Assembly: GCA_036012755.1 (NCBI GenBank)
Contig: DASCPX010000179.1
Coordinates: 96,001-160,000, forward strand
Reading direction: 5' to 3'
Length of the DNA: 64,000 nucleotides
Source of the DNA: Myxococcota bacterium
GTDB taxonomy: Bacteria; Myxococcota_A; UBA796; CAJQPC01
The notes under the pieces were generated by a model. It did no database searches and was not told the origin of the DNA. It was given only the letters and a program-made list of their open reading frames with translations. A program made the position numbers and the translations under genes. Below are positions 5,654 to 58,471 of this stretch, one piece after another (positions within the stretch are counted from its first letter, which is position 1; each line of letters opens with the position of its first letter).

Positions 5654-6349
5654 ATGCTGCTGTCGCTGTTGTTGTCTTGCTCGGGACAGCCCGAGCCCAC
5701 CAGTGTCCCCGTCGCGAAGGACGGCGAGCCCAGGATCGAGAAGCCGGCGACCCCGGCCGCGGAGCCCGAGGTCCCGACGGCCTCGGTGCCCACCCCGGCA
5801 GACTGGAACGCGACCGCCCCGGCCAACTTCGACGCGGTCTTCGAGACCAGCAAGGGCAGCTTCACCGTGAGCGTGGACCGCAGCTGGTCACCCACCGGCG
5901 CCGACCGCTTCTACAACCTCGTCGACAACGGGTACTACGACGACATCGCCTTCTTTCGGAACATCGATGGCTTCATGGTGCAGTTCGGGATCCACGGCGA
6001 CCCGGCCTTCAACACCGTCTGGAAGGACGCCTCGATCCTGGACGACGCGGTCACGAAGTCGAACCGGCGCACCTTCGTGAGCTTCGCGACCTCGGGCAAG
6101 AACAGCCGCACGACGCAGATCTTCATCAACTTCGGCGACAACTCGAGCCTCGACGGAATGGGCTTCTCGCCCTTCGGCCAGATCACCGACGGCATGGAGG
6201 TCGTGGACTCGCTCTACAACGGCTACGGCGAGGGGAGCCCCCGCGGCCGCGGACCAGACCAGGGCAAGCTCCAGAAGATGGGCAACGCCTACCTGAAGAC
6301 CGAGTTCCCGAAGCTCGACTACGTCACCCAGGCGTCGATCAGGGACTAG
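5654..6349 (+). CDS. Cyclophilin-type peptidyl-prolyl isomerase, lipoprotein
   Basis: FFRNIDGFMVQFG, SRTTQIFIN and FSPFG motifs; MLLSLLLSC lipobox; AAGGAG Shine-Dalgarno. Confidence 0.92.
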   Translation: MLLSLLLSCSGQPEPTSVPVAKDGEPRIEKPATPAAEPEVPTASVPTPADWNATAPANFDAVFETSKGSFTVSVDRSWSPTGADRFYNLVDNGYYDDIAFFRNIDGFMVQFGIHGDPAFNTVWKDASILDDAVTKSNRRTFVSFATSGKNSRTTQIFINFGDNSSLDGMGFSPFGQITDGMEVVDSLYNGYGEGSPRGRGPDQGKLQKMGNAYLKTEFPKLDYVTQASIRD

Positions 6350-7931
6350 CCTCGGCGTCACTCGGCAGCGCGAAGAGGCTCATGCCGCGGTCGGTCCACA
6401 GGGGCTCGCCCAGGTGCTGGCGGAGCCCTGGCCTCGTCGCGAGGACGTAGCGGAAGCCGGCCGTTTCGCTCCAGTCGCCCGTGATGGGTCGGTTTCGCCT
6501 CGCCTCTTCCAGGGCCACGAAGACGCCGAGCTCGACGAGTCGCCGCTCCCACTCTGCGCCGCGCATCGCGGGGCTCATGTCCCAGGCGATGCCGCCGCCC
6601 TGGGGCTGGCCGTGGATGACCTGGTAGCCGATGAGGTCATTGGGGACGCGCGCCAGGGGCCAGACGAGGATCGGACCGTGGAGCTCGGGCATCTCCGGGA
6701 TGTTGGACTCGATCCACACGTGCTCGACCGGCCTGTCGTTTCGCAGCCCGACCCGGGCGTCGGCCACGCAGACGATCGCGAGCGCAGCCACCGCCACGGG
6801 CCTGAAGCGCCTCGCCCGCGCGACGAGTCCGGCGACGCAGATGGCGAAGGCTGGCAAGCCGAGCCCCAGCCACCGATAGGGCCACCAGAAGCGCTCATGA
6901 CCGGGCAGCCAGTCCATCAGCGCAGCCGGGAGCGCGAAGCTCAGATCGCCCCACATGAGCGGGAAGCCCCGCGAGCCGACGAGGACCGGCCCCAGCGCGA
7001 AGATGACGGCGCTGGCCGCGATGGCCGCGGGGATCCGGAGAGGCCGGAAGACCATGGCGCCGAGCACCGCGGGGACCAGGAGGATGGGCACCTTGCGCGC
7101 AGGCTCGGTGGTGAGCTGGAGCAGGAAAGCGCCCGGGACCTCCAGCGCGCCCGCGTTCTTCTGGGCCAGGGGCTCCAGGCGGTTCATCAACAGCGCGTAG
7201 TGGTTGCCCTCCTCGAAGAAGGCAGGCGCGATCAGGGCGAGTGACGGCAGCACGACGACCAGGGAGACACCGAGCACCCCGAGCGCCGAGGGCTTGCGCC
7301 ACCAGGCCGCCAGCAGGAGCGTGAACAGCACGCCGAACCAGGCGTAGAACCAGTAGCAGGACCCGGTGACGCCCAGGCCGATCCCCGCCACGAGCACGGC
7401 CTTTTTTCCCCCTCCGTCACGCAGCCACAGCATGCCGCCGAGCCAGACCGCCAGGGGTGCCCAGAGACCCTGCTCGGTGCGACCGACACCCGACTCCCAG
7501 ATCGCATAAGCCGAGGCGGTGCCCACGACGACGGCGGCTGCCGCGCCCCAAGGATCCCGCGTCAGCCTCCACCCGGCCCAACCGCAAGCGACCCCGTTGG
7601 CCACCCCCACCACGAGCACCGCCGCGTTGAGCGCCGGCACGGGATCGAGCAGAGCGTGGACCGGAAAGAGCAGGACCTGGGCGCCGACATTCCACAGCAA
7701 GAGCCGCACGTCCTGCCCCTCCGGCCAGGCCAGCTCCGGCCTGAAGAAGGGATTGCGCAGCTCCAGGACACAGTCCACGAAGGAGTGCGACCACCAGATG
7801 CCCGCGCCGAGGTCCGGGTCGCCCAGCCGACCGAGGAGGTGGGTGTCCATCACCTGCACCAGCGGCCAGGACGCCGCGACGACCAGTACGATGGCCAGCG
7901 CGACGAGCGCGCCCCAGAGTCTCACCGCCAC
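6339..7931 (-). CDS. Polytopic membrane protein, YfhO/GT-C glycosyltransferase-like
   Basis: About 12 TM segments; acidic GDPD in the first loop; WPEG and RFWWPYRW motifs; soluble C-terminal domain with YQVIHGQP; start is GTG 7931 or 7925. Confidence 0.6.
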   Translation of the reverse strand: MAVRLWGALVALAIVLVVAASWPLVQVMDTHLLGRLGDPDLGAGIWWSHSFVDCVLELRNPFFRPELAWPEGQDVRLLLWNVGAQVLLFPVHALLDPVPALNAAVLVVGVANGVACGWAGWRLTRDPWGAAAAVVVGTASAYAIWESGVGRTEQGLWAPLAVWLGGMLWLRDGGGKKAVLVAGIGLGVTGSCYWFYAWFGVLFTLLLAAWWRKPSALGVLGVSLVVVLPSLALIAPAFFEEGNHYALLMNRLEPLAQKNAGALEVPGAFLLQLTTEPARKVPILLVPAVLGAMVFRPLRIPAAIAASAVIFALGPVLVGSRGFPLMWGDLSFALPAALMDWLPGHERFWWPYRWLGLGLPAFAICVAGLVARARRFRPVAVAALAIVCVADARVGLRNDRPVEHVWIESNIPEMPELHGPILVWPLARVPNDLIGYQVIHGQPQGGGIAWDMSPAMRGAEWERRLVELGVFVALEEARRNRPITGDWSETAGFRYVLATRPGLRQHLGEPLWTDRGMSLFALPSDAEASP

Positions 7932-7942
7932 ACCATGACCTC

Positions 7943-7948
7943 AGCCTA
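7943..7948 (-). promoter_or_regulatory. -10-like TAnnnT hexamer
   Basis: TAGGCT-N6-ATG(7936); that ATG opens only a 4-codon ORF (MVWR*). Confidence 0.4.
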
Positions 7949-7969
7949 GCCCAGATAGAGTCGCACCAG

Positions 7970-9496: not shown

Positions 9497-9542
9497 CCGG
9501 ACACCGGAGGTCACACCCTCGGCCAGGTCGTAGGAAGAGCCG

Positions 9543-10337
9543 ATGTTCCTGTTGATGCCCCTGGCGTGCACACCAACAGATGAGCCGAGACCGTCGGTGG
9601 TGCCCGAGGCGGAGGCGACCACGGTCTGCTACTCGCTAGAGAAGAATGAGGACGACGCGACCACAGAGTTGTGGCGGATCGACCTCGCCACGGCCGAGCA
9701 CGACGTCCTCTCCACCTTCGAACCGGGATTCGAACCATGGGGGTCGCACGGTCTCCAGCGCGTGGGAGACCGGTTCATGGGCTTCGATTACTACTCCGAC
9801 CTCCACATCTTCGACCTGTCGTCGGGAATCCAGGAGACCGACGAGCGGGATCTGGACTACAGCGTGATGGTCAGCCACGCTGGCGAGGATCTTCGCGTTG
9901 TCCGCACAGAGGGGATCGACCAACGGCTCTGCTCCTACGCTGGCCCCGAAGACCTGTTGGCTGGCACGGACCAGGGCTGCGTGGTCCTGGAACTGCTCTT
10001 TGGCACCCGCTTCACGTTGCACGAGGGGCTGCTCTACTCGACCTGGCACTCCACCAATGAGTTCACGACCAGCGACGCGGTCACCGGAGAGAACCTGGGG
10101 ACGACCGACCTCGAGAACTGGGACACCTGGGTCTGGGGGCTGAGCGTCGCCGACGGGAAGCTCCACGTGGTAGACGACGGCCGCAACTCGGGGGAGTACA
10201 ACATCCTCATCGGCCTGTTCGACCTGGAGGGCGGGCGAATCGACACCGTCGGCGTCCGGAACGCACACTGGGGGTCTGAGCATCTCGGCGGCTTGTGGTG
10301 CCGCGAAGAAGACCCTCAGCTCGACTCCGCACCCTGA
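9543..10337 (+). CDS. Hypothetical lipoprotein, probable beta-propeller
   Basis: MFLLMPLAC lipobox; acidic, beta-strand-rich sequence. Confidence 0.7.
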   Translation: MFLLMPLACTPTDEPRPSVVPEAEATTVCYSLEKNEDDATTELWRIDLATAEHDVLSTFEPGFEPWGSHGLQRVGDRFMGFDYYSDLHIFDLSSGIQETDERDLDYSVMVSHAGEDLRVVRTEGIDQRLCSYAGPEDLLAGTDQGCVVLELLFGTRFTLHEGLLYSTWHSTNEFTTSDAVTGENLGTTDLENWDTWVWGLSVADGKLHVVDDGRNSGEYNILIGLFDLEGGRIDTVGVRNAHWGSEHLGGLWCREEDPQLDSAP

Positions 10338-10581: not shown

Positions 10582-10967
10582 GGCCTCCAGACCCAGCTTC
10601 GTGGCGAGCCCCTGGCCCGCCGCATCTCGGGCTTGATGGCGTTGAACCCGGTCTCGCAGAACAGGGCCCAGTCATCCTCGACCTCCAGCACCACGTCGCC
10701 GAGGTGCCAGCGGGAGACCTCGCACTCGGGCTCCGGCCAGTCCACGGCGGCACTGTCGTGGGAGGCACTGTCGTGGGAGGCACTGTCGTGGGAGGCACTG
10801 TCGTGGGAGGCACTGTCGTGGGAGGCACTGTCGTGGGAGGCACTGTCGTACGAGTCGGAGTCGCCACCAGAGTCCCCGATCTCCACGCCGGTGTCGCACT
10901 CCGCGCCGGGGTCGCCGGCGATCTGGCGCGGATCGCCGCAGGCGAGGAGGACGACTGGGATGAGCAT
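10476..10967 (-). pseudogene. Lipoprotein with (DSASH)6 linker, apparently truncated after …FCETGFNAI
   Basis: MLIPVVLLAC lipobox and acidic N-terminal half, then an abrupt switch to Arg/Pro-rich off-frame sequence near 10635. Confidence 0.55.
10749..10849. repeat. 15-bp perfect tandem repeat (6 copies + 11 bp) encoding DSASH on the minus strand
   Basis: Unit GGCACTGTCGTGGGA from 10749. Confidence 0.97.
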
Positions 10968-10973
10968 GGACTC

Positions 10974-10979
10974 ACGCTA
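10974..10979 (-). promoter_or_regulatory. -10-like TAnnnT hexamer (leaderless start)
   Basis: TAGCGT-N6-ATG(10967). Confidence 0.5.
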
Positions 10980-17975: not shown

Positions 17976-18796
17976 CTCCCGAAGACGCCCACCTGGTGGC
18001 CGGAGACACCACCGACGCCGTCGAACATCATCGTGCCGGCAGCGTAGGGCGTGCCGCGGATGGAGACGTCCTCGTAGACCTCTGCGCGGACCAGGCCGCC
18101 GTCGCTGCGGAGGTCGACCTTCGTGCCCCTGGGCAACAGCACGTCACCGGGGAAGCGATTGCCCCGGGCCAGGGTGCAGCTGGCGACGTTGCCGTTGTCG
18201 TGGAGCAGGGCAGCGGAGAGGCAGGGCACCCCCGCGACGGTGACGGACTCCGCGGGAGAGGCGAGGTCGCCGAGCACGACCTCCGCCAGGTTGCCGTTTT
18301 CGTGGAAGGTCGCCCGAGCGCCTCTGCGCAAGCTGAAGTCACCGACGCCGTAGGGCTCGGACAGGACACAGCTCCACCGCCCGTCGGCGTGGGCCTCTGC
18401 GGTCTTGGCCTCCCTGCACGGCACGCCCCGGATGAACATGTTGGCAGCCAGGATGACGCGCACGCCGGTGACAGCGCCGCTGGCTTCGTGGACGATGGAC
18501 TCTCGCGAGCCGAAGTCGAGCGCCTCGAGCTCGTCGAGGGGGGGCAAGAGCACGACCTCCTCGCCAGCTTCGGCCACCTCGCCGCCGTCTTGTCCGCTGC
18601 CGTCCTCGTCGAGTTCGAGCTCGTCGGGGGTCCAGACCTCCTCGTAGTCCACGTCGGGGTCAAAGACGCGCATTTGCGGGACGCCGAGCGGATCGCCCTC
18701 CTCGGCCGGTGGTGCAGCCCCCTCGGCGAGGGGGTCGGACGCGGCGGACTCGGTGTCGGAGCCGCAGGCGAAGGCCAGGAGGAGAGTGAGGACCAT
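17972..18796 (-). CDS. Hypothetical lipoprotein with H..G.L beta repeats
   Basis: MVLTLLLAFAC; repeated FHENGNL/LHDNGNV and GVPC units. Confidence 0.7.
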   Translation of the reverse strand: MVLTLLLAFACGSDTESAASDPLAEGAAPPAEEGDPLGVPQMRVFDPDVDYEEVWTPDELELDEDGSGQDGGEVAEAGEEVVLLPPLDELEALDFGSRESIVHEASGAVTGVRVILAANMFIRGVPCREAKTAEAHADGRWSCVLSEPYGVGDFSLRRGARATFHENGNLAEVVLGDLASPAESVTVAGVPCLSAALLHDNGNVASCTLARGNRFPGDVLLPRGTKVDLRSDGGLVRAEVYEDVSIRGTPYAAGTMMFDGVGGVSGHQVGVFGS

Positions 18797-18802: not shown

Positions 18803-18808
18803 AGCCTA
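18803..18808 (-). promoter_or_regulatory. -10-like TAnnnT hexamer (leaderless start)
   Basis: TAGGCT-N6-ATG(18796). Confidence 0.5.
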
Positions 18809-33645: not shown

Positions 33646-34296
33646 ATGCTGCTGTTGTCCCTCGCCTGCACCGACGCCAACCTCGCCTTCAAGATCCAGC
33701 AGGTCGAGGCCGCCCCGCTCCTCGAGGACTACGAGGCCGTCCTTGCCCACCTCGAGGCGGATCGCCTGGCGATGGCCGAGCGAGGTGCTACCGCCGAAGA
33801 GGCCCGCGAGCGCGTCCTGAGCGCCCTGCGCGACGACATCTGGCCCGCCTGGTACGGAACGACCTGGGGCTTCTACGGCACCACCCAGACCCCTCGCGAA
33901 GGGCAGATCGCCTGCGGCTACTTCGTCAGCACGACCCTGGAGGACGCGGGCTTCCAGGTGGAGCGCGTGAAGCTCGCACAGCAGGCCAGCAAGAAGATCG
34001 TCCAGACCTTCTCGGAGCAGGACGTGACCACCTGGGGGCGCTCCAACGACGCAGTGCTCGACCGCCTCGAGCCGGGGCTGAACCTCGTCGGCCTCGACTA
34101 CCACGTGGCCTTCCTCGACGTGCGCGAGGACGACGTCTACATGTGCCACAGCTCGGTGCTGGAGCCGGTGAGCGTGGTCTGCGAGCCAGCCGCCACTGCA
34201 GAGGCCCTGGACTCGAACGTGCACGTGACGGGTCCGGTGCTGACCGACGAGGTCATGAAGAAGTGGCTGGCCGGCGAGCCGATCCCTACCCGCTGA
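33646..34296 (+). CDS. Lipoprotein with papain/NlpC-like Cys-His pattern
   Basis: MLLLSLAC; WYGT.W.F.G…IACGYFVSTTL…VGLDYHV…HSS. Confidence 0.7.
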   Translation: MLLLSLACTDANLAFKIQQVEAAPLLEDYEAVLAHLEADRLAMAERGATAEEARERVLSALRDDIWPAWYGTTWGFYGTTQTPREGQIACGYFVSTTLEDAGFQVERVKLAQQASKKIVQTFSEQDVTTWGRSNDAVLDRLEPGLNLVGLDYHVAFLDVREDDVYMCHSSVLEPVSVVCEPAATAEALDSNVHVTGPVLTDEVMKKWLAGEPIPTR

Positions 34297-36810: not shown

Positions 36811-38387
36811 TCATCGGACTCGCGCTGGCCTGCATGGGCGAGATCCGGACCGCCGAGTTGGCCCCGGAGGGCTGGGTCTGCGTCGACAAGGACCAGGACG
36901 GGTTCTGCATCGAAGACGACTGCGACGACGGCAACTTCGAGATCTACCCCGGCGCCCTCGAGCTCTGTGACGGCTTCGACGGTGACTGCGACGGAGAGAT
37001 CGACGAGGGGGTCGAGCTGCGGGCATACCGCGACGCCGACGGTGACGGCATCGGAGCCGAAGCCCAGCGCATCGAAGCCTGCATCATCCCCGACGGCTAC
37101 GCGCCCACCGGCGGTGACTGCGACGACTCCAACCCCTACGCCTACCCGGGCGCCGTCGAGCACTGCGAGGGCACGGACGAAGACTGTGATGGTGAGATCG
37201 ACGAGGGGCTGGAGCAGACCTTCTTCCTCGACGCGGACCAGGACGGCTACGGCACGGACGAGGTCGCGATCGTCGCCTGCTGGGCGCCCGAGTTCTTCAT
37301 CGACAACGGTCTGGACTGCGATGACTCCGACGCCGCCATCTACCCCGGAGCGCTCGAGGTCTGCGACGAGGCAGACAACGACTGTGACACGGAGATCGAC
37401 GAGCACGTCGTGCCCACCTGGTACCACGACGCCGACGGTGACGGGCATGGGGACCGCGAGACCGCCCTGGAGGTCTGCGACGCCCCAGAGGGCTACGTCG
37501 CCGAAGAGGACGACTGCGACGACACCGACCCCGAGGCGAACCCCTCGATGCCAGAGCTGTGCAACGGCAAGGACGACGACTGCGACGGCAGCCGCGACGA
37601 GCCATCGGCCATCGACGCCCCCACCTGGTACCAGGACAGCGACCGCGACGGCTTCGGAGACTCCACGGTGAGCAAGACCCTCTGTCACGACATCGACGGC
37701 TGGGTCGAGGACGCCACGGACTGCGACGACACCCTCGCGGCCGTGAACCCGGACAGCGACGAGGTCTGCAACGGGCGGGACGACGACTGCGACGGGGTCG
37801 TCGATCCGGACTACTTCAGCTCGACCTTCACCGCGCCGACGAAGCTGAACCTCAACGGCGACGCGCTCCAGGTGTGGGACGGCAGCGACGGCTTCATCGA
37901 GCTCACGACCACGAACAGCTGGGAGGCCGGCTCGGCCATCTTCGGGACCGCCGTCCCGGGCAGCAAGTGGCGCATCCAGTTCGACGCGGCGCTGGGCGAG
38001 GGCACCGGCGGCGAGGGCATGGCGCTGGTGCTGCTGAACGAGTCGAACCCCAACGTGGTGGGAGACCCGGGTGACTCGCTGGGGGCGGCGCCGCTCGATG
38101 GCTGGGCCATCACCCTGGACACGCAGGACACGGAGCACCTCGGCATCGCCGAGTGCAGCACGCTGAAGGAGCAGGAGACGGTCCCCTGGGACCTCCATGA
38201 CGAGGGCTGGATCACGGTCGAGGTCGAGTACGACCGCGGCAACCTCGACATCTGGCTGGACGGCACGCTGGCGACCTCGACGACGCTCTCGCCGATGCCG
38301 GCGGCGATCCTGGTCGGCTGGACCGCCGGGACCAGCACCATCACCGACGTGCACGAGCTCGACGACGTGACGATCGGCTGCCCGTGA
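36807..38387 (+). CDS. Lipoprotein with MopE-like repeats and an L-type lectin-like C-terminal domain
   Basis: MIIGLALAC; DCDD repeats; LNGDA…AGSA…GGEGMALV…VGWTAGT; GTGA-coupled. Confidence 0.85.
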   Translation: MIIGLALACMGEIRTAELAPEGWVCVDKDQDGFCIEDDCDDGNFEIYPGALELCDGFDGDCDGEIDEGVELRAYRDADGDGIGAEAQRIEACIIPDGYAPTGGDCDDSNPYAYPGAVEHCEGTDEDCDGEIDEGLEQTFFLDADQDGYGTDEVAIVACWAPEFFIDNGLDCDDSDAAIYPGALEVCDEADNDCDTEIDEHVVPTWYHDADGDGHGDRETALEVCDAPEGYVAEEDDCDDTDPEANPSMPELCNGKDDDCDGSRDEPSAIDAPTWYQDSDRDGFGDSTVSKTLCHDIDGWVEDATDCDDTLAAVNPDSDEVCNGRDDDCDGVVDPDYFSSTFTAPTKLNLNGDALQVWDGSDGFIELTTTNSWEAGSAIFGTAVPGSKWRIQFDAALGEGTGGEGMALVLLNESNPNVVGDPGDSLGAAPLDGWAITLDTQDTEHLGIAECSTLKEQETVPWDLHDEGWITVEVEYDRGNLDIWLDGTLATSTTLSPMPAAILVGWTAGTSTITDVHELDDVTIGCP

Positions 38388-38815
38388 TCACCTGCACCCG
38401 CCGCCTGGCCTGGGACGCGATGCACCGGATCCCCCGCCACGAGAGCAAGTGCGCGGCCTTCCATGGCCACCGCTACACGGCAGACATCACCTGTGTCGCG
38501 CCGGAGCTCGACGACCGCGGCAGGGTCGTGGACTTCGGCGTCGTGAAGGAGCGGGTCGGTGGCTGGATCGATCGCTGGTGGGACCACACGGCCATCCTGA
38601 TGCGCGGGGACGCCGACCCTGCGATACAGATGCTCGCCGCCAGCAACGAAGCCCACGGCCGACCGGTCTACTGGACCGACGAGCCGCCGACCGCCGAGGT
38701 GCTCGCCGCCGAGCTGGCGAGGGTCGCCGGGGAGCTCCTCGCCGACACCGGCGTCGAGGTCGTCGCCGTGCGCGTCTGGGAGACCCCCAACGGATGGGCT
38801 GAGTGGTCGCGCTGA
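38384..38815 (+). CDS. queD: 6-carboxytetrahydropterin synthase (6-PTPS family)
   Basis: HR…C..FHGHRY, DFG, DH, PTAE and VWETP motifs. Confidence 0.88.
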   Translation: MITCTRRLAWDAMHRIPRHESKCAAFHGHRYTADITCVAPELDDRGRVVDFGVVKERVGGWIDRWWDHTAILMRGDADPAIQMLAASNEAHGRPVYWTDEPPTAEVLAAELARVAGELLADTGVEVVAVRVWETPNGWAEWSR

Positions 38816-39978
38816 TCCTGTGGGGCTGTACCTCCCCTGACGACACCGGCTCGCGCGACCCCATCACCGTGGAGTTGCTGACCGAGCGCACCCAGGCGCT
38901 GGTCGACCTCGGCCCGCGGGTGGTGGGGACCTCGAGCGAGGAGGACGCCAGGGCGCTGCTCGATGGCTGGTTCCTCTCGACGGGGCTCCAGGAGGTCGAG
39001 AGCGAGCCCTTCGCCTGGGATGCCTGGCAGCGTGGAGCTTCCAGCCTGAACCAGGGCGGCGTGGAGTACGCCACCTGGGCCTGGAGCCCCTCGCCGAGCG
39101 GCACGGTGAGCGGCGTGCTCGAGAGCGTGGAGGGGGACGTCGGCGGCAAGATCGCCCTGTCGCGCTCTGGCTCGATGATGCGGACAGAGGCCTTCGTCTC
39201 GGCGCTCACGGGCGGCGCGGTGGGGCTGGTGCACGTGAGCGAGGCGATCGACGCCGACGGCACGGACCTGGTCGAGGTCGGCCACACCCTCGATGGCTCC
39301 TCGCTGCCCGCGGTCGCGCTCGGCAAGCGGGACGGCAACGACCTCGAGCTCGGCGAGGAGATCACGCTGTCGATCGACTCGTCCGTGCTCTACGACCACA
39401 CCTCCTACAACGTCGTGGGCCGGGTCCCCGGGACGGGCTCAGGGCGGGTCTACGTCGTGGCCCACTACGACTCCTGGGATCCCAGCGAGTCGGCCTTCGA
39501 CAACGCCATGGGCGCGGCGGCGCTGTCCCTGCTCGCCGAGCGCATGGCCCAGGAGCAGCCGCGGCGCGAGGTCGTCTTCATCGCCACCAGCGGCGAGGAG
39601 CAGGGCCTCCAGGGGGCCCAGGCCTATGTGGAGGACCACCTCGACGAGGTCCTCGCGGGGACCTCGGTCATGACGCTGGACGTGCTCTGGTCGGCCAGCG
39701 GGGACTACTACGTCGCGGCCACTCGGGAAGAGGACCGGGTCGTCGGCATGGAGGCCGCCCTCGATGAGGGGCTGCCCGCGCGTGACTCGGGCAACCCCTC
39801 GCCGGCCAGCGACCACTTCGCCTTCGAGTCGAGGGGCCTGGACAGCTTCTGGGCGACCCGCCAGCCGGACATCCACTACCACACGACCCACGACCGGCTC
39901 GAGTACCTCGACATGGACGACGCGACCGCGGCTCTTCGCACCCAGTGGGTGGTCTTGCAGGAACTTGCGGACCTCTGA
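38803..39978 (+). CDS. M28 family peptidase lipoprotein with PA domain
   Basis: VVAHYDS, AFDNAMG, GEEQGL, SDH and YHT motifs; MVALILWGC. Confidence 0.88.
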   Translation: MVALILWGCTSPDDTGSRDPITVELLTERTQALVDLGPRVVGTSSEEDARALLDGWFLSTGLQEVESEPFAWDAWQRGASSLNQGGVEYATWAWSPSPSGTVSGVLESVEGDVGGKIALSRSGSMMRTEAFVSALTGGAVGLVHVSEAIDADGTDLVEVGHTLDGSSLPAVALGKRDGNDLELGEEITLSIDSSVLYDHTSYNVVGRVPGTGSGRVYVVAHYDSWDPSESAFDNAMGAAALSLLAERMAQEQPRREVVFIATSGEEQGLQGAQAYVEDHLDEVLAGTSVMTLDVLWSASGDYYVAATREEDRVVGMEAALDEGLPARDSGNPSPASDHFAFESRGLDSFWATRQPDIHYHTTHDRLEYLDMDDATAALRTQWVVLQELADL

Positions 39979-41692: not shown

Positions 41693-43056
41693 GGCAGGGG
41701 CTGCAGCAGCACCATCGAGTCACCCTCTGTGGACCAGGAGCTGATCGAGATCTCCCCTCCGGGTCTGTCGTCCAGATCGCCGAAGCCGAGGGCTCGACCC
41801 AGGGCCTGGCCGTAGGAGGTGCCGGCACGCTCCCAGTCTGGCTCCACCAGCTGGCCGGTGAGCGGTCCGTACCAGAGCCGCAGGTGGCCGGCGGTGGCCT
41901 CGCCGCCCTCCGAGGGGGCCTCTGTGTTGCCGATGACCACGTCGTGAAGCCCGTCGCCGTCGATGTCCTCGACAAGGACGTGCTGTCCCTGGGTGTGGAG
42001 CAGCTCGATCTCCGAGGCCACGAAGCTGGCGAGGGCCCGATCCGGCATGTTGCCGGCTTCGGGCGGGCCAGGGATCAGCCAGGTGGTGGCTGGGGTCGCG
42101 GATGCCTCGAACTCGGGACCCACCGTGACCAGGAGGTCGTCGAAGCCGTCTCCGTCGACATCCCCGGCCTCTACCCCGCGGGTGAAGTCCGGCTCGTCAC
42201 GCTCGGCGTCGATGGTCAGCCCGTCCATCGAGGTCAGGACACCCTGGATCGGGCCGGAGTAGACCAGGAGCGCGCCGTCGTCGCCCTGGTTCGCGGCGCA
42301 GACCGCGAGGTCGTCGATGCCGTCGCCGTCGAGGTCACCCGCAGCCAGAGCCCAGCCGAGCTCTCCGCGATCGAAGGAGCCCTCGATCCCGTCGAGGGTG
42401 TCGAGGTCGTAGTCCTCTTCAATGGGGGCCCCCAAGAGCACGACGACGCCGGCGCCGAAGCGGTCTTCTACGAATGCGTAGGGCGCCCCTGCTGCGACCT
42501 CCGGCAGGCCATCGTCATCGAAGTCCCCCACGGCGAGCTCCTGCCCGAGGTGGTCTCCGATGCCGCGGCCCAGGGCCCGCCCGGTCGAGTGGCCATCGAG
42601 GCTGCCGTCGATGAGGGGGGCGACCCCCATGAAGAGCACCGCGCCCTGGTCACGAGTCGTCGCGGTCTGGCCCTGGGCTGCGACGACCAGCTCGAGCGTG
42701 CCGTCTTGTTCGAGGTCGACGGTGGCGAGGGAGGAGCCGAGGGAGGAGGCCTCCTCGCTGCCGACGAGCAGACCATCGAGCTCGCTGTGCTCGCCGGCCT
42801 CGAGGGGTCCCGACATGAGCGCGACCGCCCCCTCGTTGCCGACCCGGTGGTAGCCGGGCATGCCTCCGACGAGGTCGTCGTGACCGTCCCCGTCGAGGTC
42901 CTCGACGAGGAGGGTGTGGACCTGGCCGGGCAGCACCACGCGGGTCGACAGAGCGTCGAGGGCGTCGATCTCCGGGAGGGCGGGTCCGCTGGAGTCCCCG
43001 AGCACCTCGCTGTCCGAGACCGTCTCGGTGGCGCAGGCGAGGAGCAGCGGAATCAT
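41683..43056 (-). CDS. FG-GAP (integrin alpha-like) repeat lipoprotein
   Basis: MIPLLLAC; about seven GD.DGDG.DDL-type repeats; AAGGAG SD. Confidence 0.88.
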   Translation of the reverse strand: MIPLLLACATETVSDSEVLGDSSGPALPEIDALDALSTRVVLPGQVHTLLVEDLDGDGHDDLVGGMPGYHRVGNEGAVALMSGPLEAGEHSELDGLLVGSEEASSLGSSLATVDLEQDGTLELVVAAQGQTATTRDQGAVLFMGVAPLIDGSLDGHSTGRALGRGIGDHLGQELAVGDFDDDGLPEVAAGAPYAFVEDRFGAGVVVLLGAPIEEDYDLDTLDGIEGSFDRGELGWALAAGDLDGDGIDDLAVCAANQGDDGALLVYSGPIQGVLTSMDGLTIDAERDEPDFTRGVEAGDVDGDGFDDLLVTVGPEFEASATPATTWLIPGPPEAGNMPDRALASFVASEIELLHTQGQHVLVEDIDGDGLHDVVIGNTEAPSEGGEATAGHLRLWYGPLTGQLVEPDWERAGTSYGQALGRALGFGDLDDRPGGEISISSWSTEGDSMVLLQPLPQL

Positions 43057-46608: not shown

Positions 46609-48735
46609 ATGACTCTTCTCGCACTGCTCACGCCCACCTTTGGCGCAACCTGGTCGGTCGGCCCCCACGGCGACTTCGACAGCATCCAAGAGGCCGTAGA
46701 CACCGCCGCCGATGGGGACTCGATCCTCATCCAGCAGGGCGACTACGAGCTCGTCGTCATCGACGGACGGGACCTCGCCATCGAGGCGTCGCCCGGCGTG
46801 ACCTTGGAGTCGATCCACTTCCTCGACTCGACCGTCAGCTTCGTCGGTCTGAACATCGCCGAGGCGATGGTCGTCGAGGGCGGCACCGTCACCGGCTCCA
46901 ACACCCGCTTCGTCGGACACGGCAAGATGAGCGCCCCCGCGCTGACCGTCGTCCGCGGCGAGGTCTCGCTCACCGACACCAGCGTCTCCGACTGGGACGC
47001 CCCAGGCAGCCCGATCGAGATCTTCGACGGCGGCGCCAGCTTCGATGGCATGGACGTCGTCCGCACAGGCGGTGACTCCGGCGGCGCGATGCACGTCTAC
47101 GGCGGCACCGTGTCGGTCAGCTCCAGCCGCTTCAGCGACATCCGGGCGGCCGGCTCCGGCGGAGCCATCGCGGTCTCCGATGGCAGCCTCGCGGTCTCCG
47201 CTTCCACCTTCGAGTCCTGCTCCGCGGAGCGCGGCGGCTTCCTGTCCGTCCACGACGCCAGCGCGAGCATCGAGACCTCCTCGTTCGAGGGCGGCTTCGC
47301 CCGCACCGGCGGCGGCGCCATGCACCTCGACGGCGGCTCGCTCACCGTCACCTCCGTGAGCTTCCGAGACAACGAGGCCACCGGGAGCGGCGGGAGCATG
47401 GCGATCCAGCGCGGCTCGTTCTCTGCCACTGACATCGAGTCCGACGGCAGCATCGCCGAGTCCGGTGGACACATCTTCGTCAGCTCCGGCGCGTCCGTCT
47501 CCATCACCCGCAGCGTGCTGTCGGCCGGTCAGGCTGTCTCCGGCGCCGGGCTGACCAACGACGGCGGCTCCGTCTTCGTGTCCAATGCCATCTGGAAGGA
47601 CGCCGAGTGGGCCGACGTGGGCGGCGCCGTCTACATGTCCGATGGTTCCCTCGAGATGCGCTACGCCGTCCTGGCCCGCAACAAGGCCGCCGTCGGTGGC
47701 GGCGTCGCGATGGAGGGCGGTGACGCCCACTTCGAGGGCTGCATCATCGCCCACAACACCGCAGAGGCCATCGCCAACGCCGGCTCCGGCTCCGCGACCT
47801 ACCGTCACGGCGTGACCTGGGACAACAGCGGCGTCGAGATCGCAGGCAACGTGCACTTTGGCGCTGGCGCCTTCGCCGCCGACCCGATGTTCCGCAGCCC
47901 CGAGGGCGGCGACTACGCGCTCTGGAGCTACAGCCCGGCGCTGGACTCTGGCCCTGCCGGCGAGGTCGACCCCGACCTCACCGCCCCCGACATGGGCGCC
48001 TACGGTGGACATCTGGCCTGGGCCCTCCCGGACGAGGACGGCGACGGCCACGTCTACGGACGCGACTGCGACGACCAGGACCCGGACTCCTTCGAGTACG
48101 CCATCGACGCCTGGTACGACGGCATCGACCATGACTGCCGCCGCAACTCCGACTTCGACATGGACGGCGACGGGCACGACTCGGCCATCTTCGGCGGAGA
48201 CGACTGCGACGACTCCAACGCCAGCCGCAACCCCTCTCACTACGAAGAGAGCGGCGACGAGTTCGACAGCGACTGCGACGGGCTGCTCGACCGCGACGGC
48301 GACGGCGACGGCTGGTCGGACGCGGTCGACTGCGACGACCAGGATCCCGACGTCCACCCGGCCGCCCACGACGCCCCCTACGATGGCATCGACACCGACT
48401 GTCGCGGAGACGACGACTACGACTGGGACGGCGATGGCTGGCGTCTCGAGGTCGACTGCGACGACACCGACCCCTACGTTCACCCCGACGCGGCCGAAGT
48501 CAGCGATGACGGCGTCGACCAGGACTGCGATGGCAGCGACCTGGACGGCTCGGCCCCCGGCTACGTCGACACCCTGGTGGCTTCGTCCGATGACGACGAG
48601 GTCCCCTGGGCCCCCGTTTCCCCGCCCAGCTACGCCGTCACCACCGGCGGCTGCAGCTCGGCACAGACTCCCACCGGCCTCGCCGCTGCGCTCCTTGCGC
48701 TCGCTGGCACGCTCCTCCTCCGCCGCCGCGACTAG
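46609..48735 (+). CDS. Surface protein: parallel beta-helix (GGA repeats) + MopE-like repeats + MYXO-CTERM-like anchor
   Basis: SIQEAVD, repeated GGA(I/M/V), DMGAYGG, DCDD repeats, GGCSS…LLLRRRD. Confidence 0.88.
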   Translation: MTLLALLTPTFGATWSVGPHGDFDSIQEAVDTAADGDSILIQQGDYELVVIDGRDLAIEASPGVTLESIHFLDSTVSFVGLNIAEAMVVEGGTVTGSNTRFVGHGKMSAPALTVVRGEVSLTDTSVSDWDAPGSPIEIFDGGASFDGMDVVRTGGDSGGAMHVYGGTVSVSSSRFSDIRAAGSGGAIAVSDGSLAVSASTFESCSAERGGFLSVHDASASIETSSFEGGFARTGGGAMHLDGGSLTVTSVSFRDNEATGSGGSMAIQRGSFSATDIESDGSIAESGGHIFVSSGASVSITRSVLSAGQAVSGAGLTNDGGSVFVSNAIWKDAEWADVGGAVYMSDGSLEMRYAVLARNKAAVGGGVAMEGGDAHFEGCIIAHNTAEAIANAGSGSATYRHGVTWDNSGVEIAGNVHFGAGAFAADPMFRSPEGGDYALWSYSPALDSGPAGEVDPDLTAPDMGAYGGHLAWALPDEDGDGHVYGRDCDDQDPDSFEYAIDAWYDGIDHDCRRNSDFDMDGDGHDSAIFGGDDCDDSNASRNPSHYEESGDEFDSDCDGLLDRDGDGDGWSDAVDCDDQDPDVHPAAHDAPYDGIDTDCRGDDDYDWDGDGWRLEVDCDDTDPYVHPDAAEVSDDGVDQDCDGSDLDGSAPGYVDTLVASSDDDEVPWAPVSPPSYAVTTGGCSSAQTPTGLAAALLALAGTLLLRRRD

Positions 48736-48891: not shown

Positions 48892-49941
48892 ATGCTTCTG
48901 CTGTCACTCGCCTGCACCGCCGAGCCCGAGACCACCTCGACGCTCCCGCCCCCCCTGCCCGCCATGGGTACGCCAGCCATCGCCCAGGACGGCGACGGTG
49001 TCGTCGCGACCTGGAAGGGCGGCCAGATGACCTACTCAGAGCTCCAGGCGGAGATCGGGAGCGAGCTGGCGCTCCTGGAGATCGAGTACCTCCAGGGCCG
49101 ATACCAGCTCGAGACCGCCGCGCTGCAGGAGGCGACGACCCTGAAGGTGCTGGAGGCCGAGGCGGCCTCTCGCTCCATGACCCTCGAGGAGCTGCTGAAG
49201 GTCGAGGTCGAGGACAAGGTCGCCAGGCCCACCGAAGACGAGGTGAAGGAGTTCTACCCGCTGGTCGCGCGCCAGCTCCGGAACGCCCCCTTCGAGGCCG
49301 TGAAGGACCAGGTCGAGATCGCGCTGCTCAACCGCCGCCAGGGCGAGCGCATGCAGGTCTACCTCCAGGAGATCGACGCCCTCTACGAGATCGACACGCA
49401 GCTGCCCTATCCGGACCTTCCCAGGATGGACGTCAGCGTCGACGACGACCCCTCACGGGGGCCCGATACCGCCAAGGTCACCATCGTCGAGTTCGCCGAC
49501 TACAACTGCGGCTACTGCCGCAAGATCTACCCGACCCTCGTCGAGCTCATCGAGACCGACTACCCGGGCCAGGTGAAGCTGGTCTACCGCGACTACCCGC
49601 TCTCCGGCGGCGCGGGCGGACTCGAGCCCACCATCGCAGCCAACTGCGCCGGCGCCCAAGGCAAGTACTGGGAGATGCACGACGCCCTGATGCGTCGGGG
49701 CAACTACTCCGAGGCCGCGCTGGCCGGCTACGCAGCCGAGATCGGACTGGACGCCGACGCCTTCACAGACTGCACCTCGAAGCCAGAGGACAGCCTGCCG
49801 GAGATCATGGAGGACTTCCAGGCCGGGCGAGAGGTCGGGGTCACCGGAACGCCAGCCTTCTTCATCAACGGCATCCCGCTCTCCGGCGCCGTGCCAAAGG
49901 ACCAGTTCGTGGCCGTGATCGAGAAAGAGCTGGGCTCGTGA
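48892..49941 (+). CDS. DsbA/thioredoxin-like lipoprotein with SurA-N-like domain
   Basis: MLLLSLAC; EFADYNCGYC; GVTGTPAFFING. Confidence 0.9.
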   Translation: MLLLSLACTAEPETTSTLPPPLPAMGTPAIAQDGDGVVATWKGGQMTYSELQAEIGSELALLEIEYLQGRYQLETAALQEATTLKVLEAEAASRSMTLEELLKVEVEDKVARPTEDEVKEFYPLVARQLRNAPFEAVKDQVEIALLNRRQGERMQVYLQEIDALYEIDTQLPYPDLPRMDVSVDDDPSRGPDTAKVTIVEFADYNCGYCRKIYPTLVELIETDYPGQVKLVYRDYPLSGGAGGLEPTIAANCAGAQGKYWEMHDALMRRGNYSEAALAGYAAEIGLDADAFTDCTSKPEDSLPEIMEDFQAGREVGVTGTPAFFINGIPLSGAVPKDQFVAVIEKELGS

Positions 49942-53010: not shown

Positions 53011-55233
53011 ATGATCCTGCTGTCCCTCGCGCTGGCTACCGACGTCGACCGGGCGCCCTATCTCCAGTCGACCTCGGACACATCCACCCACATCCTCTGG
53101 TGGACGGACGCGGAGAGCGAGGGCCAGGTGCTCTGGGGCGCGGAGGGCGGGGAGCTCGACCAGGTGGCGACGAGCACCTCGGGACTTGCGCACGACGTCG
53201 AGATCACGGGCCTCGATCCGGCCACGACCTACGACTACCAGGTCGAAGACGACGCGGGCCTGGTGCTGGGCGGGGGCAGCTTCACGACGAACCCGCCTGT
53301 CGGCGACCCGGCGACGATGCGCCTGTGGGTCATCGGCGACTCCGGCACGGGAATGCAGGCGCAGTTCGACGTCTACGAGACCTTCCGGAATGCCACCGCA
53401 GAAGACGTCCCGCTCGTGATGCTGCACGTCGGGGACATCGCCTACAACGACGGGACGCACGAGGAGTTCTCCGACAACTTCTTCGGCGTCTACGGGGACT
53501 TCCTGGACTCGGCGACGGCCTGGCCGACCATCGGCAACCACGAGGCCTTCACCTCGAACTCAGAAGACCAGTCCGGTCCCTACTTCGAGGGCTTCGTCCT
53601 GCCGAGCTCGGGAGAGCTCGGTGGCGTCGCCAGCGGCACAGAGGCCTACTACTCCTTCGATCTCGCCAACGTACACGTCGTCGTGCTCGACTCGGCGGAC
53701 ACGGAGCGCACCGCCGATGGCGCGATGGCGCAGTGGCTGGAGCAGGACCTCGCCGCGACGACGCAGGACTGGGTCATCGCCACCTTCCACCATCCGCCGT
53801 ACTCGAAGGGCACCCACGACTCCGACGAGCAGCAGCCACAGATCGCGATGCGCGAGAACCTGGTCCCAATACTGGAGGCCGGGGGAGTCGATCTGGTCCT
53901 CAACGGGCACAGCCACAACTACGAGCGCAGCTACCTGCTCGACGGCGCCTACGAGACGCCGACCACCGACGCGGGCATCCTGGATGCGGACGACGGCACG
54001 CTCGGCGGACAAGGGCCCTATGAGAAGGCCGAGGGCATCACGGCGAACGCGGGCGCCGTCTACGTCGTGGCCGGGCACGGCGGCACCAACATCGGCGGAC
54101 CGGGCGGACACCCGGTCATGTACGTCTCAGAGGTCGAGTGGGGCAGCGTGCTCGTCGACATCGACGACGACCACCTCACCCTGCGAAACCTGCGCGTGGA
54201 CGGCGACTACACCGACGAGTTCACACTGGTCAAGGGCGACGACCTCCTGCTCCACGGCCCGGACGGAGAGGAGCCCCTCGACCCAGGCGAGATCTACACG
54301 ATCGAGTGGACCGCCGTCGGCGAGCTCGAGAGCGTGGACGTCGAGTGGACCTGCGACGGGGAGACCTGGGAGGTGCTCGCAGAGGACGTCGCGGTGGACG
54401 GCTCCTACGACTGGACGGTGCCCGAGTACGGCACGCGAAGGGCCCGAGTGCGGATCACGGCAGGCGACGAGGTCGACACGAGCGACGGCGCGGTCAGCAT
54501 CGTGCGCACGTCCTCTGAGACCCTCGTCGAGATGGGCGCGACCTGGAAGTACTCCGACACCGACGGGGAGCTGGCCGAAGACTGGTACTCCAACACCTTC
54601 GACGACAGCGCCTGGGCCGAAGGAGCCGCGGAGTTGGGCTTCGGCGACGGGGACGAGGCCACGGAGCTGGCGGTCGGGCAGCCGACCTTCTACTTCCGCC
54701 ACACCTTCTCGACCACGGACCCCATCGCCTCTACGAAGCTGACGGTGCTCTACGACGACGGCGCCGCCGTGTGGCTGAACGGGTCCATGTTGGTCCTGAC
54801 CCCCAACATGGGCATCCTCGACTACCCGGACTTCACCAACTACACCGGCTCGGACAACAAGGTCCTGGAGTTCGATCTCCCAGGCAATGTCTACCGAAGC
54901 GGCGACAACGTCCTCGCCGTGATGGTCAAGCAGTCCGAGCCGGAGAGCAACGACCTGTCCTTCGATCTCTCGCTCGAGGTCGAGGTCTACGAGGACCTGC
55001 CGGAGTGCTGGGCCACGCCCATCGACACCGGCGGGGACAGCACCCCGGACAGCGAAGCCGACACAGAGGTCCCGATCGACTCAGAGGTCCCGGACGACTC
55101 GGAAGCGCCCGAGGAGGAAGAAGAGGAAGAGGACGACCGCGAGCCCTACGACCCGGGGGGCTGCTGCAGGGGACCGACCCCCATCGCGCTGTTGCTGCTG
55201 CTGTTGGTACCCTTCTGGTCGAGGCGTCGATGA
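53011..55233 (+). CDS. Purple acid phosphatase-like metallophosphoesterase with accessory domains and MYXO-CTERM-like tail
   Basis: GDSG, GDIAY, GNHE, HHP and GHSH motifs; GGCC…LLLLLL…RRR. Confidence 0.9.
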   Translation: MILLSLALATDVDRAPYLQSTSDTSTHILWWTDAESEGQVLWGAEGGELDQVATSTSGLAHDVEITGLDPATTYDYQVEDDAGLVLGGGSFTTNPPVGDPATMRLWVIGDSGTGMQAQFDVYETFRNATAEDVPLVMLHVGDIAYNDGTHEEFSDNFFGVYGDFLDSATAWPTIGNHEAFTSNSEDQSGPYFEGFVLPSSGELGGVASGTEAYYSFDLANVHVVVLDSADTERTADGAMAQWLEQDLAATTQDWVIATFHHPPYSKGTHDSDEQQPQIAMRENLVPILEAGGVDLVLNGHSHNYERSYLLDGAYETPTTDAGILDADDGTLGGQGPYEKAEGITANAGAVYVVAGHGGTNIGGPGGHPVMYVSEVEWGSVLVDIDDDHLTLRNLRVDGDYTDEFTLVKGDDLLLHGPDGEEPLDPGEIYTIEWTAVGELESVDVEWTCDGETWEVLAEDVAVDGSYDWTVPEYGTRRARVRITAGDEVDTSDGAVSIVRTSSETLVEMGATWKYSDTDGELAEDWYSNTFDDSAWAEGAAELGFGDGDEATELAVGQPTFYFRHTFSTTDPIASTKLTVLYDDGAAVWLNGSMLVLTPNMGILDYPDFTNYTGSDNKVLEFDLPGNVYRSGDNVLAVMVKQSEPESNDLSFDLSLEVEVYEDLPECWATPIDTGGDSTPDSEADTEVPIDSEVPDDSEAPEEEEEEEDDREPYDPGGCCRGPTPIALLLLLLVPFWSRRR

Positions 55234-56114
55234 TCCTCTCCCTGTTCGCCTGCACGGACCCCGGCGACACAGGGATCCCCGAGCCCCCCGACCCGGAGTT
55301 CGCCTTCTCGATCGCGGCCATCGCCGATCCCCACATCGCAGGCGGCGCTGACGCCCTGGAGCGCCTGGCTTCGACCGTGGCCTGGATCGACGAGCACGCC
55401 GAGTCGCGCGGCATCGAGCTGGTCGTGGTGCTCGGTGACATCGGCTGGGGCGAGCCCCTGCAGGACGCTCACGACACCCTCGAGGAGCTCGACGTCCCCT
55501 ACGTTCCCGTCATCGGCGACAACGAACCTCACGCCGGCTGGGGCGAGGGCTTCGATCAGATCTTCGCGGAGCAGCTGTTGGAGCTGGAAGAGCTCGGCGA
55601 GGACTGGACGCGCATGGACATCCCCGTCTGGGACCCAGAGGCCGAGGAGACCATCTGGCTCCAGAACTACGGCTTCACCTACCGGGGCATGAGGCTGGTG
55701 GTGCTGGACTGGGCGTCGCGCTCGGATGACACCGTCATCGGCGAGACCGGGGACCTGCACGACTTCGAAGGGGGCACCCTCGCCTTCCTCTCCGACGAGC
55801 TCTCCGATCTGCACGCGATGGCCGACGAGTCCGTCGTCATGGCCACCCACAACCCGATGTTCCTGATCCCCGGCGGCTTCGACATCGAGCAGTCCGAGAC
55901 CGTCTACACGCTCACCTCGGCGGTCGAGGAGAAGGTGGCGATGAACCTCGCTGGTCACTTCCACGTGGACTACGAGGAGACCATCTACGACGGCGGCTAC
56001 GAGCTCTACATCGTCGACGCGGTCTGGGACGACCTCAAGACCATCCGCCTCGTCGAGGTCTGGGACAACGGAGAGACCCTCAGCTACGAGCACGAGCTGG
56101 TGATCGTGCCCTGA
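55230..56114 (+). CDS. Metallophosphoesterase lipoprotein
   Basis: MILSLFAC; ADPH, LGDI, GDNE and AGHFH motifs; ATGA-coupled. Confidence 0.85.
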   Translation: MILSLFACTDPGDTGIPEPPDPEFAFSIAAIADPHIAGGADALERLASTVAWIDEHAESRGIELVVVLGDIGWGEPLQDAHDTLEELDVPYVPVIGDNEPHAGWGEGFDQIFAEQLLELEELGEDWTRMDIPVWDPEAEETIWLQNYGFTYRGMRLVVLDWASRSDDTVIGETGDLHDFEGGTLAFLSDELSDLHAMADESVVMATHNPMFLIPGGFDIEQSETVYTLTSAVEEKVAMNLAGHFHVDYEETIYDGGYELYIVDAVWDDLKTIRLVEVWDNGETLSYEHELVIVP

Positions 56115-57982: not shown

Positions 57983-58054
57983 GCGGGCGGATATACCGCA
58001 CGCGATGTTGCTGCTGTCCGCTGGTCGCCGCGAGTGAGGGTCCGCAGCGTCTGA

Positions 58055-58471
58055 TCAGTTGGAGTGCAGCTCCACCAACAGCCCCTCGTCGGCGACCACC
58101 GCGAAGCCGCCTCTCCAGCGGATGTTCTCGAAGGCGGTCGTGGAGTAGGTCGCGCCATCGACGGACCCGGTGATCCCCAGCGCCCGCGCGAGCTCCTCGT
58201 CGGGATGGACCGTAGCGGTGCCCGTGCTGTCACCGAGCACGGAGAGATCCACCTCGTCTGCAGGGAACCAGGCCAGAAGCACCAGGTCGGTCGGGCCGAG
58301 GCCCACCGTGCCCTTCGCTCGAGCGACCCAGCGGACCGTGTCGTAGCCCTCTGGGACCGCGATGTGCCGCTCCAGCGAGGCGCGGTCTTCTCGAACCTCC
58401 ACCGTCTCCTCCTTCGGCGTCTCGACCTCGGGTGTGCCCCCGCAGGCCAGGCTCACAACGAGCCAGTTCAT
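58055..58471 (-). CDS. Small lipoprotein (candidate immunity protein)
   Basis: MNWLVVSLAC; GLGPTD motif; ATGA-coupled to the upstream gene. Confidence 0.7.
   Translation of the reverse strand: MNWLVVSLACGGTPEVETPKEETVEVREDRASLERHIAVPEGYDTVRWVARAKGTVGLGPTDLVLLAWFPADEVDLSVLGDSTGTATVHPDEELARALGITGSVDGATYSTTAFENIRWRGGFAVVADEGLLVELHSN

Follow-up and report, generated by a model that had tools for sequence, protein, structure and literature searches.

Ultrashort, charge-free N-terminal signals on the predicted lipoproteins of an uncultured marine myxobacterium

Most of the predicted lipoproteins of an uncultured marine myxobacterium were found to begin with an ultrashort leader, which consists of the initiator Met and five to eight hydrophobic, uncharged residues followed by Cys. 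Such a leader is about half as long as a textbook signal and has no positively charged n-region. The analysis covered a stretch of 64,000 nucleotides (contig DASCPX010000179.1, positions 96001-160000; hereafter, the window) and the 6.73-Mb assembly to which it belongs (250 contigs, 68% G+C). An earlier note on the window had listed 14 short N-termini, attributed this kind of signal to nearly all exported proteins, and proposed a lineage-specific variant of protein export or lipidation. We conclude that the short N-termini are real and probably serve as minimal, Leu-rich Sec-type signals for the standard machinery; the trait would lie in the substrates and not in a detectable change of the machinery.

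The gene set was built from stop-to-stop frames of at least 90 codons, scored by codon log-odds, with long GC3-rich frames as the training set. The distribution of the scores was multimodal, and its top mode contained 5,398 frames, 5,341 of which had a start codon in the first half. A start codon followed by 5-11 uncharged, mostly hydrophobic residues and Cys was present among the first six candidate starts in 914 of these 5,341 genes and at the very first start codon in 477 (8.9%). In the control, the same pattern followed 426 of 73,784 internal ATG, GTG, or TTG codons (0.58%), so its frequency at the first starts is not due to chance. Each of the 62 contigs that are 30 kb or longer carried the trait, in 4-32% of its genes, which ruled out a binning chimera.

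For a stricter count, the "fixed start" set was used, that is, the 2,314 genes whose first start lies no more than 10 codons from the upstream stop, and a strict lipobox pattern was applied to it. Among the 266 lipobox N-termini obtained, 222 were composed of Met, a hydrophobic stretch, and [GAS]C without Lys or Arg; 37 had a classical n-region and seven consisted of M[K/R], a hydrophobic stretch, and Cys. For lipoproteins, the view that exported proteins nearly always carry short, charge-free signals therefore holds. In a looser list, many apparent Lys/Arg-bearing lipoproteins turned out to have an ultrashort leader behind a spurious Arg-rich upstream start (for example, ...GTRQQL-MLWLALAC).

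A start-neutral census, in which N-terminal hydrophobic stretches ending in a lipobox-like Cys were collected without presupposing a start, gave 1,480 genes. Every candidate start was inside the hydrophobic stretch in 606 of them, and in 509 the start inside the stretch was the first start codon of the whole stop-to-stop frame. A genome-wide histogram of the first Cys, suggested in the earlier note, placed it mostly at residues 7-11 of these 509 leaders, with the mode at 8. The stop and the start were separated by three codons or fewer in 155 of the 509 genes, and in 152 no Lys or Arg codon at all was present between them; in the latter, a basic n-region is out of reach whatever codon initiates translation.

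The upstream profile of the candidate starts showed purine-rich GGAG-type motifs around -10 as well as a TANNNT hexamer in strict register. Of 913 starts, 99 had the hexamer beginning at -12 and 35 at -13, and the counts at the other offsets from -40 to -6 were 0-14. When aligned, the boxes gave the consensus G-n-T-A-g-n-C-T, and the start codon came six to seven bases after it. TAnnnT is named as the -10 consensus in a passage on leaderless transcripts in PMC4007540, and the spacing between the putative box and the start is the arrangement of leaderless mRNAs. A box beginning with TAG or TAA places an in-frame stop at codon -4, which accounts for a peak of 105 genes at a stop-to-start distance of exactly three codons and also for the stops "4 codons before" the start that the earlier note had described. 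The box was present in 63 of 216 ultrashort lipoprotein genes and in 121 of 1,272 genes that lack an N-terminal hydrophobic run, a threefold enrichment. Judged by these in-register promoter and Shine-Dalgarno signals and by the 509, 155, and 152 genes described above, the short N-termini are real starts and not mis-called ones, as had been claimed for the window.

In the genome as a whole, a -10 box exactly 12 nt before the start was seen in 515 of 5,256 genes (9.8%), compared with 73-124 at control offsets. Four relatives and one outgroup, sampled at 200 kb each, carried this leaderless signature at 5.6-8.7% of their genes. Leaderless promoters were rejected as the cause of the trait, as the signature is about equally common in high-trait, low-trait, and outgroup genomes and does not follow the trait.

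The composition of the leaders was examined in a logo of the 509 sequences aligned at Cys; sequences entered the set only with a hydrophobic stretch and, at -1, a small or aliphatic residue, and Cys is fixed by construction. Leu accounted for 46-61% of residues at -6 to -2 (57% at -3 and 61% at -2), and position -1 was occupied by Ala (67%), Gly (15%), or Ser (12%). The Leu at -2 falls outside the strict lipobox consensus [LVI][ASTVI][GAS]C, as it is worded in one section of PMC12462473. In the fixed-start set, the distance from Met (or the n-region) to Cys was 6.9 residues in the ultrashort leaders (n = 222, sd 1.4) and 12.4 in the classical ones (n = 37). The usual length of an h-region is about 7-22 residues, which puts the ultrashort hydrophobic stretch together with its lipobox at or under the lower bound. 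The Leu content was 48% in the 222 ultrashort leaders versus 27% in the 37 classical leaders of the same genome, and the mean Kyte-Doolittle value per residue was 2.60 versus 2.16. Residue 2 was large (Leu, Ile, Phe, Trp, or similar) in 161 of the 222; since the initiator Met is cleaved off only before a small second residue, these leaders would retain it. The net charge over positions +2 to +16 of the mature chain was about -2.1 (-2.19 in the Lys/Arg-bearing and -2.12 in the ultrashort lipoproteins). The first 50 mature residues of lipoproteins contained 18-24% Asp plus Glu and 4-8% Lys plus Arg, versus 14.3% and 9.6% in the proteome, and Pro was frequent at +3 to +7.

In the window, all 14 peptides listed earlier were recovered at their coordinates by in-frame reading back to the upstream stop, nine on the plus strand and five on the minus strand (starts 10967, 18796, 33526, 43056, and 58471; the strand of 43056 and 33526 had been left unstated). 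The starts at 36807 and 38803 are GTG. In ten cases, the frame was free of ATG, GTG, and TTG from the upstream stop to the start, and the distance was zero codons (38803 and 48892), three (9543, 10967, and 18796), seven (5654), eight (58471), 13 (36807), 22 (53011), or 24 (33646). The reported in-frame stops just before 38803, 48892, 10967, 18796, and 5654 were thereby confirmed, and so was the stop-start coupling at 36807, 55230, and 58471, where the start overlaps the stop of the preceding gene by 4 nt. Less secure are the starts at 34888, with a TTG 21 codons upstream, and at 43056, 55230, and 33526, with more distant in-frame upstream starts. As translated from the short starts, nine of ten window proteins were exact entries in public protein sets, which indicates that other pipelines call the same starts.

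The predicted lipoprotein signals of the window are attached to varied cargo. On the plus strand, MLLSLLLSC (5654..5680) opens a cyclophilin-type peptidyl-prolyl isomerase (gene 5654-6349, PF00160) whose start is that of the public protein sets and is preceded by an AAGGAG Shine-Dalgarno sequence at 5643-5648. MFLLMPLAC (9543..9569), with a TAG three codons upstream, opens gene 9543-10337, for which no Pfam family was found. MLLLSLAC occurs twice, at 33646..33669 (gene 33646-34296) and at 48892..48915, the start of a DsbA-like thioredoxin with a TGA immediately upstream and a TAG 4 codons upstream. A MopE-repeat protein (34888-36810, PF11617), the 640-aa form of which is found in public protein sets, begins with MLLLVLAC (34888..34911); it is followed by a MopE/lectin-like protein with the GTG-initiated M-IIGLALAC (36807..36833), whose start overlaps the upstream stop as GTGA. 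The M28 peptidase (PF04389) with the GTG-initiated M-VALILWGC (38803..38829) has a TGA immediately upstream, and the metallophosphoesterase with MILSLFAC (55230..55253) shares an ATGA with the upstream stop.

On the minus strand, MLIPVVLLAC (10938..10967) opens gene 10476-10967. The TAG three codons upstream belongs to a TANNNT box, TAGCGT (10974..10979), which lies at -12 to -7 of the start and forms the in-frame stop within a candidate leaderless-type promoter. MVLTLLLAFAC (18764..18796) opens gene 17972-18796 behind the -10-type box TAGGCT (18803..18808), also at -12 to -7, with a G at -14. MIPLLLAC (43033..43056) belongs to an FG-GAP repeat protein (gene 41683-43056), and MNWLVVSLAC (58442..58471) to gene 58055-58471, the start of which overlaps the stop of gene 58468-59664 as ATGA. 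Three further N-termini are charge-free and type I-like: MLALFGTALA (33497..33526, minus strand; gene 32057-33526, with a possible GTG start 38 codons upstream), MILLSLALA (53011..53037, plus strand) of a purple-acid-phosphatase-like protein, and MTLLALLTPTFGA (46609..46647, plus strand) of a beta-helix/MopE protein, which was absent from the earlier list.

A Pfam scan assigned a family to nine of 15 window proteins (cyclophilin, DsbA-like thioredoxin, MopE, M28 peptidase, FG-GAP, metallophosphoesterase, and purple acid phosphatase) and none to the remaining six. The lipoprotein 10476-10967, which has no Pfam family, carries an acidic low-complexity run with at least four DSASH repeats after its Cys. 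MopE-type "putative metal-binding" repeats (PF11617) occur several times over in each of three plus-strand proteins, encoded at 34888-38387 and 46609-48735. Two of the three are neighbours with coupled translation, and in one a legume-lectin-like match scored weakly, under the Pfam cut-off.

Charge-free signals were also seen on proteins of the type I class, with N-termini such as MLLLIGLAVA|QD, MLLISLVLA|QD, MFLLVGAALA|GD, and MMWLLAGLAMA|ED. One LolA homologue starts with MLLSVLALGLA|AE, three codons after a stop, and one keeps a classical signal. The TonB-dependent receptors are likewise mixed, two having classical signals (MPWAKLSRLILLF... and MLSRIWPLLWLFF...) and one LLYILATSAIA|ED, so that classical and ultrashort signals stand side by side in one genome. 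A crude detector found 109 charge-free candidates without an n-region and with a small-x-small site, versus 39.5 expected from an internal-Met control, and 136 Lys/Arg-bearing signals versus 62 expected. The excess over background was thus about 70 and about 74, respectively, which puts the charge-free form at about one half of type I signals. With the two classes about equal, the statement on "nearly all exported proteins" is overstated beyond lipoproteins and fails for the substrates of signal peptidase I. It should be noted that one TonB-dependent receptor plug (contig C127:60944-61267 region) lies downstream of a membrane-enzyme-like region and of an internal signal-like stretch in the same open frame.

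Sec and lipoprotein signals are described with a positively charged n-region in the relevant part of PMC9360617. The ultrashort leaders share with canonical Sec/SPase II signals (the E. coli Lpp type; SPase, signal peptidase) the N-terminal position, the hydrophobic core, Ala, Gly, or Ser at -1, and Cys at +1, and Lgt, LspA, and Lnt are encoded in the genome. They differ from them in the lack of a charged n-region, in the position of Cys (7-10, mode 8, versus about 16-25), and in having mostly Leu instead of Ala or Ser at -2. They also break the PROSITE PS51257 lipoprotein rule, which, as we understand it, places Cys at 15-35 and a Lys or Arg in the first seven residues. Likewise, the charge-free type I-like signals have the hydrophobic core, the small-x-small site, and the polar mature start of canonical Sec/SPase I signals, and three S26 peptidases are encoded, whereas their total length is 7-13 residues, and they lack an n-region and have hardly any separate c-region.

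The closest precedents are of limited extent. Engineered minimal or charge-free E. coli signals with poly-Leu cores (Kendall; Hikita and Mizushima) reportedly demonstrated that hydrophobic density can replace n-region charge; those were single laboratory constructs, whereas here such signals are the natural default for hundreds of proteins. Class III (prepilin) leaders are basic, have Gly at -1 and Glu at +5, and are cut on the cytoplasmic side before the hydrophobic helix. The present leaders resemble these type IV pilin-like leaders in being very short and N-terminal, but here the leader itself is hydrophobic and uncharged, with Ala at -1 in 67%. No conserved Glu follows Cys in the logo of 509 leaders (Glu 10% at +4, 8% at +5, 12% at +6, and 8% at +7), and the class III assignment was rejected on account of the uncharged leader, Cys at +1, and this missing Glu. 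Tat signals were rejected as well, since the leaders contain no Arg and hence no twin-arginine motif. The type II signals of Myxococcaceae metallo-beta-lactamases are called "considerably shorter" than that of NDM-1 in PMC13616975, where it is suggested that the LspA site may lie deep in the membrane; that account, in the portion concerned with these signals, deals with one enzyme family from another class and reports neither the loss of the n-region nor a genome-wide pattern. No published report of lineage-wide n-region loss or of natural 7-10-residue signals was found in a search that left most subscription journals outside, so the absence of such reports is unproven.

The history of the trait was followed with the DsbA-like lipoprotein of the window (48892), orthologues of which were present in 41 of 41 relatives searched. 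At the loci of the same family, an ATG stood directly before the uncharged stretch and Cys in 10 of 11 cases, and the leader of the eleventh was beyond the sequence read. The leaders included MLLLLAAC, MILLLSFFAC, MILLLSLLAC, MLALTLLLAC, MLSLLVILAC (three times), MTPILLLLAC, and MSLLLMLAC, and the sequence 5' of the ATG was unconserved among these orthologues. In distant orthologues, the same Cys is preceded by the classical leaders MRTLALLAVLTAC, MTKTITAGLGLILALSAC, MRASLLILSFLAISAC, and MSIRPLVLGLALALAAC (Anaeromyxobacter oryzisoli), and outgroup orthologues have MR or MK n-regions, with Cys at about residue 13-23. The orthologues hold Cys in place while the leader shrinks.

The distribution across the phylum was surveyed in 212 genomes, 81 of the same order and 131 from outside it, using the DNA marker ATG-(NTN)5-GCN-TGY (M-h5-A-C). 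In the genome under study, the marker gave 42 matches, whereas three related control patterns gave 2-7. The counts were 42 and 48 in its own genus, 90 and 56 in a second genus of its family, 3-41 in family f7, 64 in one genome of f6, and 14-17 in family f4. They were 0-11 in f2, f5, most of f3, and the other genera of its own family, and 0-4 in the 131 genomes outside the order. Own-family genera with low counts still have charge-free 10-residue DsbA leaders, which indicated that the marker is too narrow; therefore, the start-neutral census was run on 200-kb samples. Leaders with all possible starts inside the hydrophobic stretch numbered 14 in this genome, 23 in genome G005, 14 in an f7 genome, and four in a low-marker genus of the own family. 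A complete 9.4-Mb genome of f3 yielded seven, besides numerous short "MR + h + C" leaders like MRFFPLLLVVAC, and an outgroup with MKKLLVLLALAAVALPAC-type leaders yielded one doubtful case. One sample (G040, 60% GC) was left out, as the codon model found 35 genes only.

According to these predicted leaders, the trait is graded within the order, is strongest in a few clades, and is confined to parts of this one order among the 212 genomes sampled. The gradient runs from leaders of about 18-23 residues with Lys or Arg, through "MR + h + C" leaders of 10-16, to "M + h + C" leaders of 7-10. The proposal of a lineage-specific trait was thus correct: it is common to the same-family orthologues and absent from those of the outgroup.

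Meanwhile, the set of export and lipidation genes proved to be complete and ordinary. The genome encodes one SecY, one SecA, one Ffh, three S26 signal peptidases, two LspA, five Lgt, one Lnt, and two LolA-like proteins, along with one formyltransferase (fmt) and two deformylases (def); the presence of both fmt and def ruled out a lack of formylation as the source of N-terminal charge. Both LspA proteins align with the LspA structures 6RYO, 9EMZ, and 5DIR and keep the GN-x-(I/V)-DR and FN-(I/V)-AD motifs, which presumably hold the catalytic Asp residues. SecY (contig C80, L161:1288-2634) aligns over its full length with E. coli SecY. In its pore ring, which we take to comprise E. coli positions 82, 86, 187, 191, 278, and 408, five of six positions are Ile and position 187 is Ala, and Phe67, Phe286, and Ile408, which we take to be prlA sites, are unchanged. 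The position aligned to Phe192 is Thr in this genome. Single in-frame stops were noticed in essential single-copy genes of three related metagenome-assembled genomes (a TAG in SecY of G024, a TAG in Ffh of G033, and a TGA in Ffh of G086), and these may be assembly errors.

The strongest competitor of substrate-borne minimal signals is an altered export or lipidation step, such as a prl-like SecYEG or SecA, a specialised Lgt or LspA paralogue, or unusual lipids, in which case the standard machinery would reject the leaders. We consider this improbable. The five Lgt and two LspA genes, which include a tandem lspA-lspA-lgt-lgt cluster (contig C59:99943-102645), would fit it, but a tandem arrangement recurs in several relatives, including marker-0 genomes, and the gene numbers do not track the trait. 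In the 81 genomes surveyed from the order, Lgt copy number (1-6) showed no relation to the marker and LspA copy number (0-3) no clean relation to the trait, LspA being single in genomes with marker counts of 41 and 29 and double in several genomes with a count of 0. Similarly, the Ala that stands in the SecY pore ring in place of E. coli Ile187 would suit a modified channel, but this candidate was rejected, as each of the 63 SecY sequences from the order has Ala or Ser at that site, in high-trait and low-trait genomes alike. The four own-family high-trait genomes share 16 fixed SecY positions that the low-trait members of the family lack. A scan for convergent substitutions, for which 63 of 68 SecY loci were usable (in the other five the frame filter found none), nevertheless gave no column that was common to both high-trait clades and rare in low-trait genomes (four own-family high, 10 f7 high, and 29 low-trait). 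The same scan of Ffh also gave none (50 sequences; groups of 4, 10, and 19). The coexistence of classical and ultrashort signals in the same genome argues against an altered machinery as well. The variant machinery proposed earlier thus found no support in the gene set, in SecY and Ffh substitutions, or in Lgt and LspA copy number.

In a related reading, part of the order has shifted the lower limit of the Sec signal to about seven uncharged residues through an undetected change, which we regard as unlikely. Relaxed proofreading by SecA/SecYEG, an Lgt or LspA paralogue for non-spanning leaders, and a membrane poor in anionic lipids are the candidates for such a change. If the limit were truly shifted, the n-region, which is held to be near-universal, would be dispensable in nature, and the leaders would fail in standard hosts.

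The reading that we prefer, minimal Leu-rich signals handled by the ordinary machinery, draws on the canonical processing sites, the exported-type cargo, the complete ordinary machinery, and the high Leu density. The basic n-region would have been lost, leaving Met, five to eight Leu-rich uncharged residues, and a processing site, which is the lipobox L-L-[A/G/S]-C in lipoproteins (for Lgt, LspA, and Lnt) and a small-x-small site in type I substrates (for signal peptidase I). High hydrophobicity reportedly offsets the lost n-region charge in E. coli experiments, and canonical SecYEG with SRP (signal recognition particle) or SecA would accept the leaders thanks to their high hydrophobic density. 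The deformylated amino group of Met1 would be the sole positive charge on the cytoplasmic side, and the acidic mature start would keep the charge asymmetry that orients the signal N-in. An unanchored leader of 7-10 residues, too short to span the bilayer as a helix, could slide toward the outer leaflet; with the active sites of Lgt, LspA, and LepB near that leaflet, shortness and lack of charge would be one adaptation. A similar point is raised for short myxococcal type II leaders in the part of PMC13616975 devoted to them.

Several points weigh against this preferred reading. Export, lipidation, and cleavage of these proteins are predictions from the sequence. With 5-8 residues, the hydrophobic stretch is shorter than a usual h-region and might be a poor substrate for a standard machine. 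The acidic early mature region was rejected as a specific compensation, since its acidity is equal in the Lys/Arg-bearing and ultrashort classes, which makes it a general property of the lipoproteins of this genome. The search for trait-linked changes covered substitutions in SecY and Ffh and the copy numbers of Lgt and LspA. Moreover, the gene finder and the motif detectors were simple, home-built tools, and the type I detector had a high background.

It is very unlikely that the short N-termini are not export signals at all but cytoplasmic membrane tags, or that their Cys serves another chemistry. Such a view could appeal to the six of 15 window proteins without a Pfam family and to the prediction of export from sequence. 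However, the cargo domains are typically periplasmic or surface ones, position -1 is restricted to Ala, Gly, or Ser as in lipoboxes, orthologues elsewhere have classical lipoprotein signals ending at the aligned Cys, and a LolA homologue, which is periplasmic by function, carries MLLSVLALGLA three codons after a stop. Barely credible, finally, is that the starts are mis-called and that non-canonical upstream initiation or stop read-through supplies ordinary n-regions: in-frame upstream starts do exist at 34888, 43056, 55230, and 33526 and in about half of the 914 genome-wide candidates, but each of the three stop codons is found upstream of such starts (both TGA and TAG in the case of 48892), and the short stop-to-start distances, the upstream frames without Lys or Arg codons, the in-register promoter and Shine-Dalgarno signals, and the unconserved upstream sequence of the orthologues contradict it.

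The leaders are a known kind of signal that is extreme in extent, surprising to a specialist but explicable without new machinery. If they work as they appear to, a rule-based signal definition that relies on a basic n-region and on Cys at residue 15 or later fails for a whole clade, and about one gene in six, representing most of the envelope proteome, risks being labelled cytoplasmic or "hypothetical". The clade offers hundreds of natural examples together with graded relatives (leaders of 18-23, 10-16, and 7-10 residues), in which n-region charge, hydrophobic density, and length are testable, and its leaders are candidate minimal tags for secretion or lipidation.

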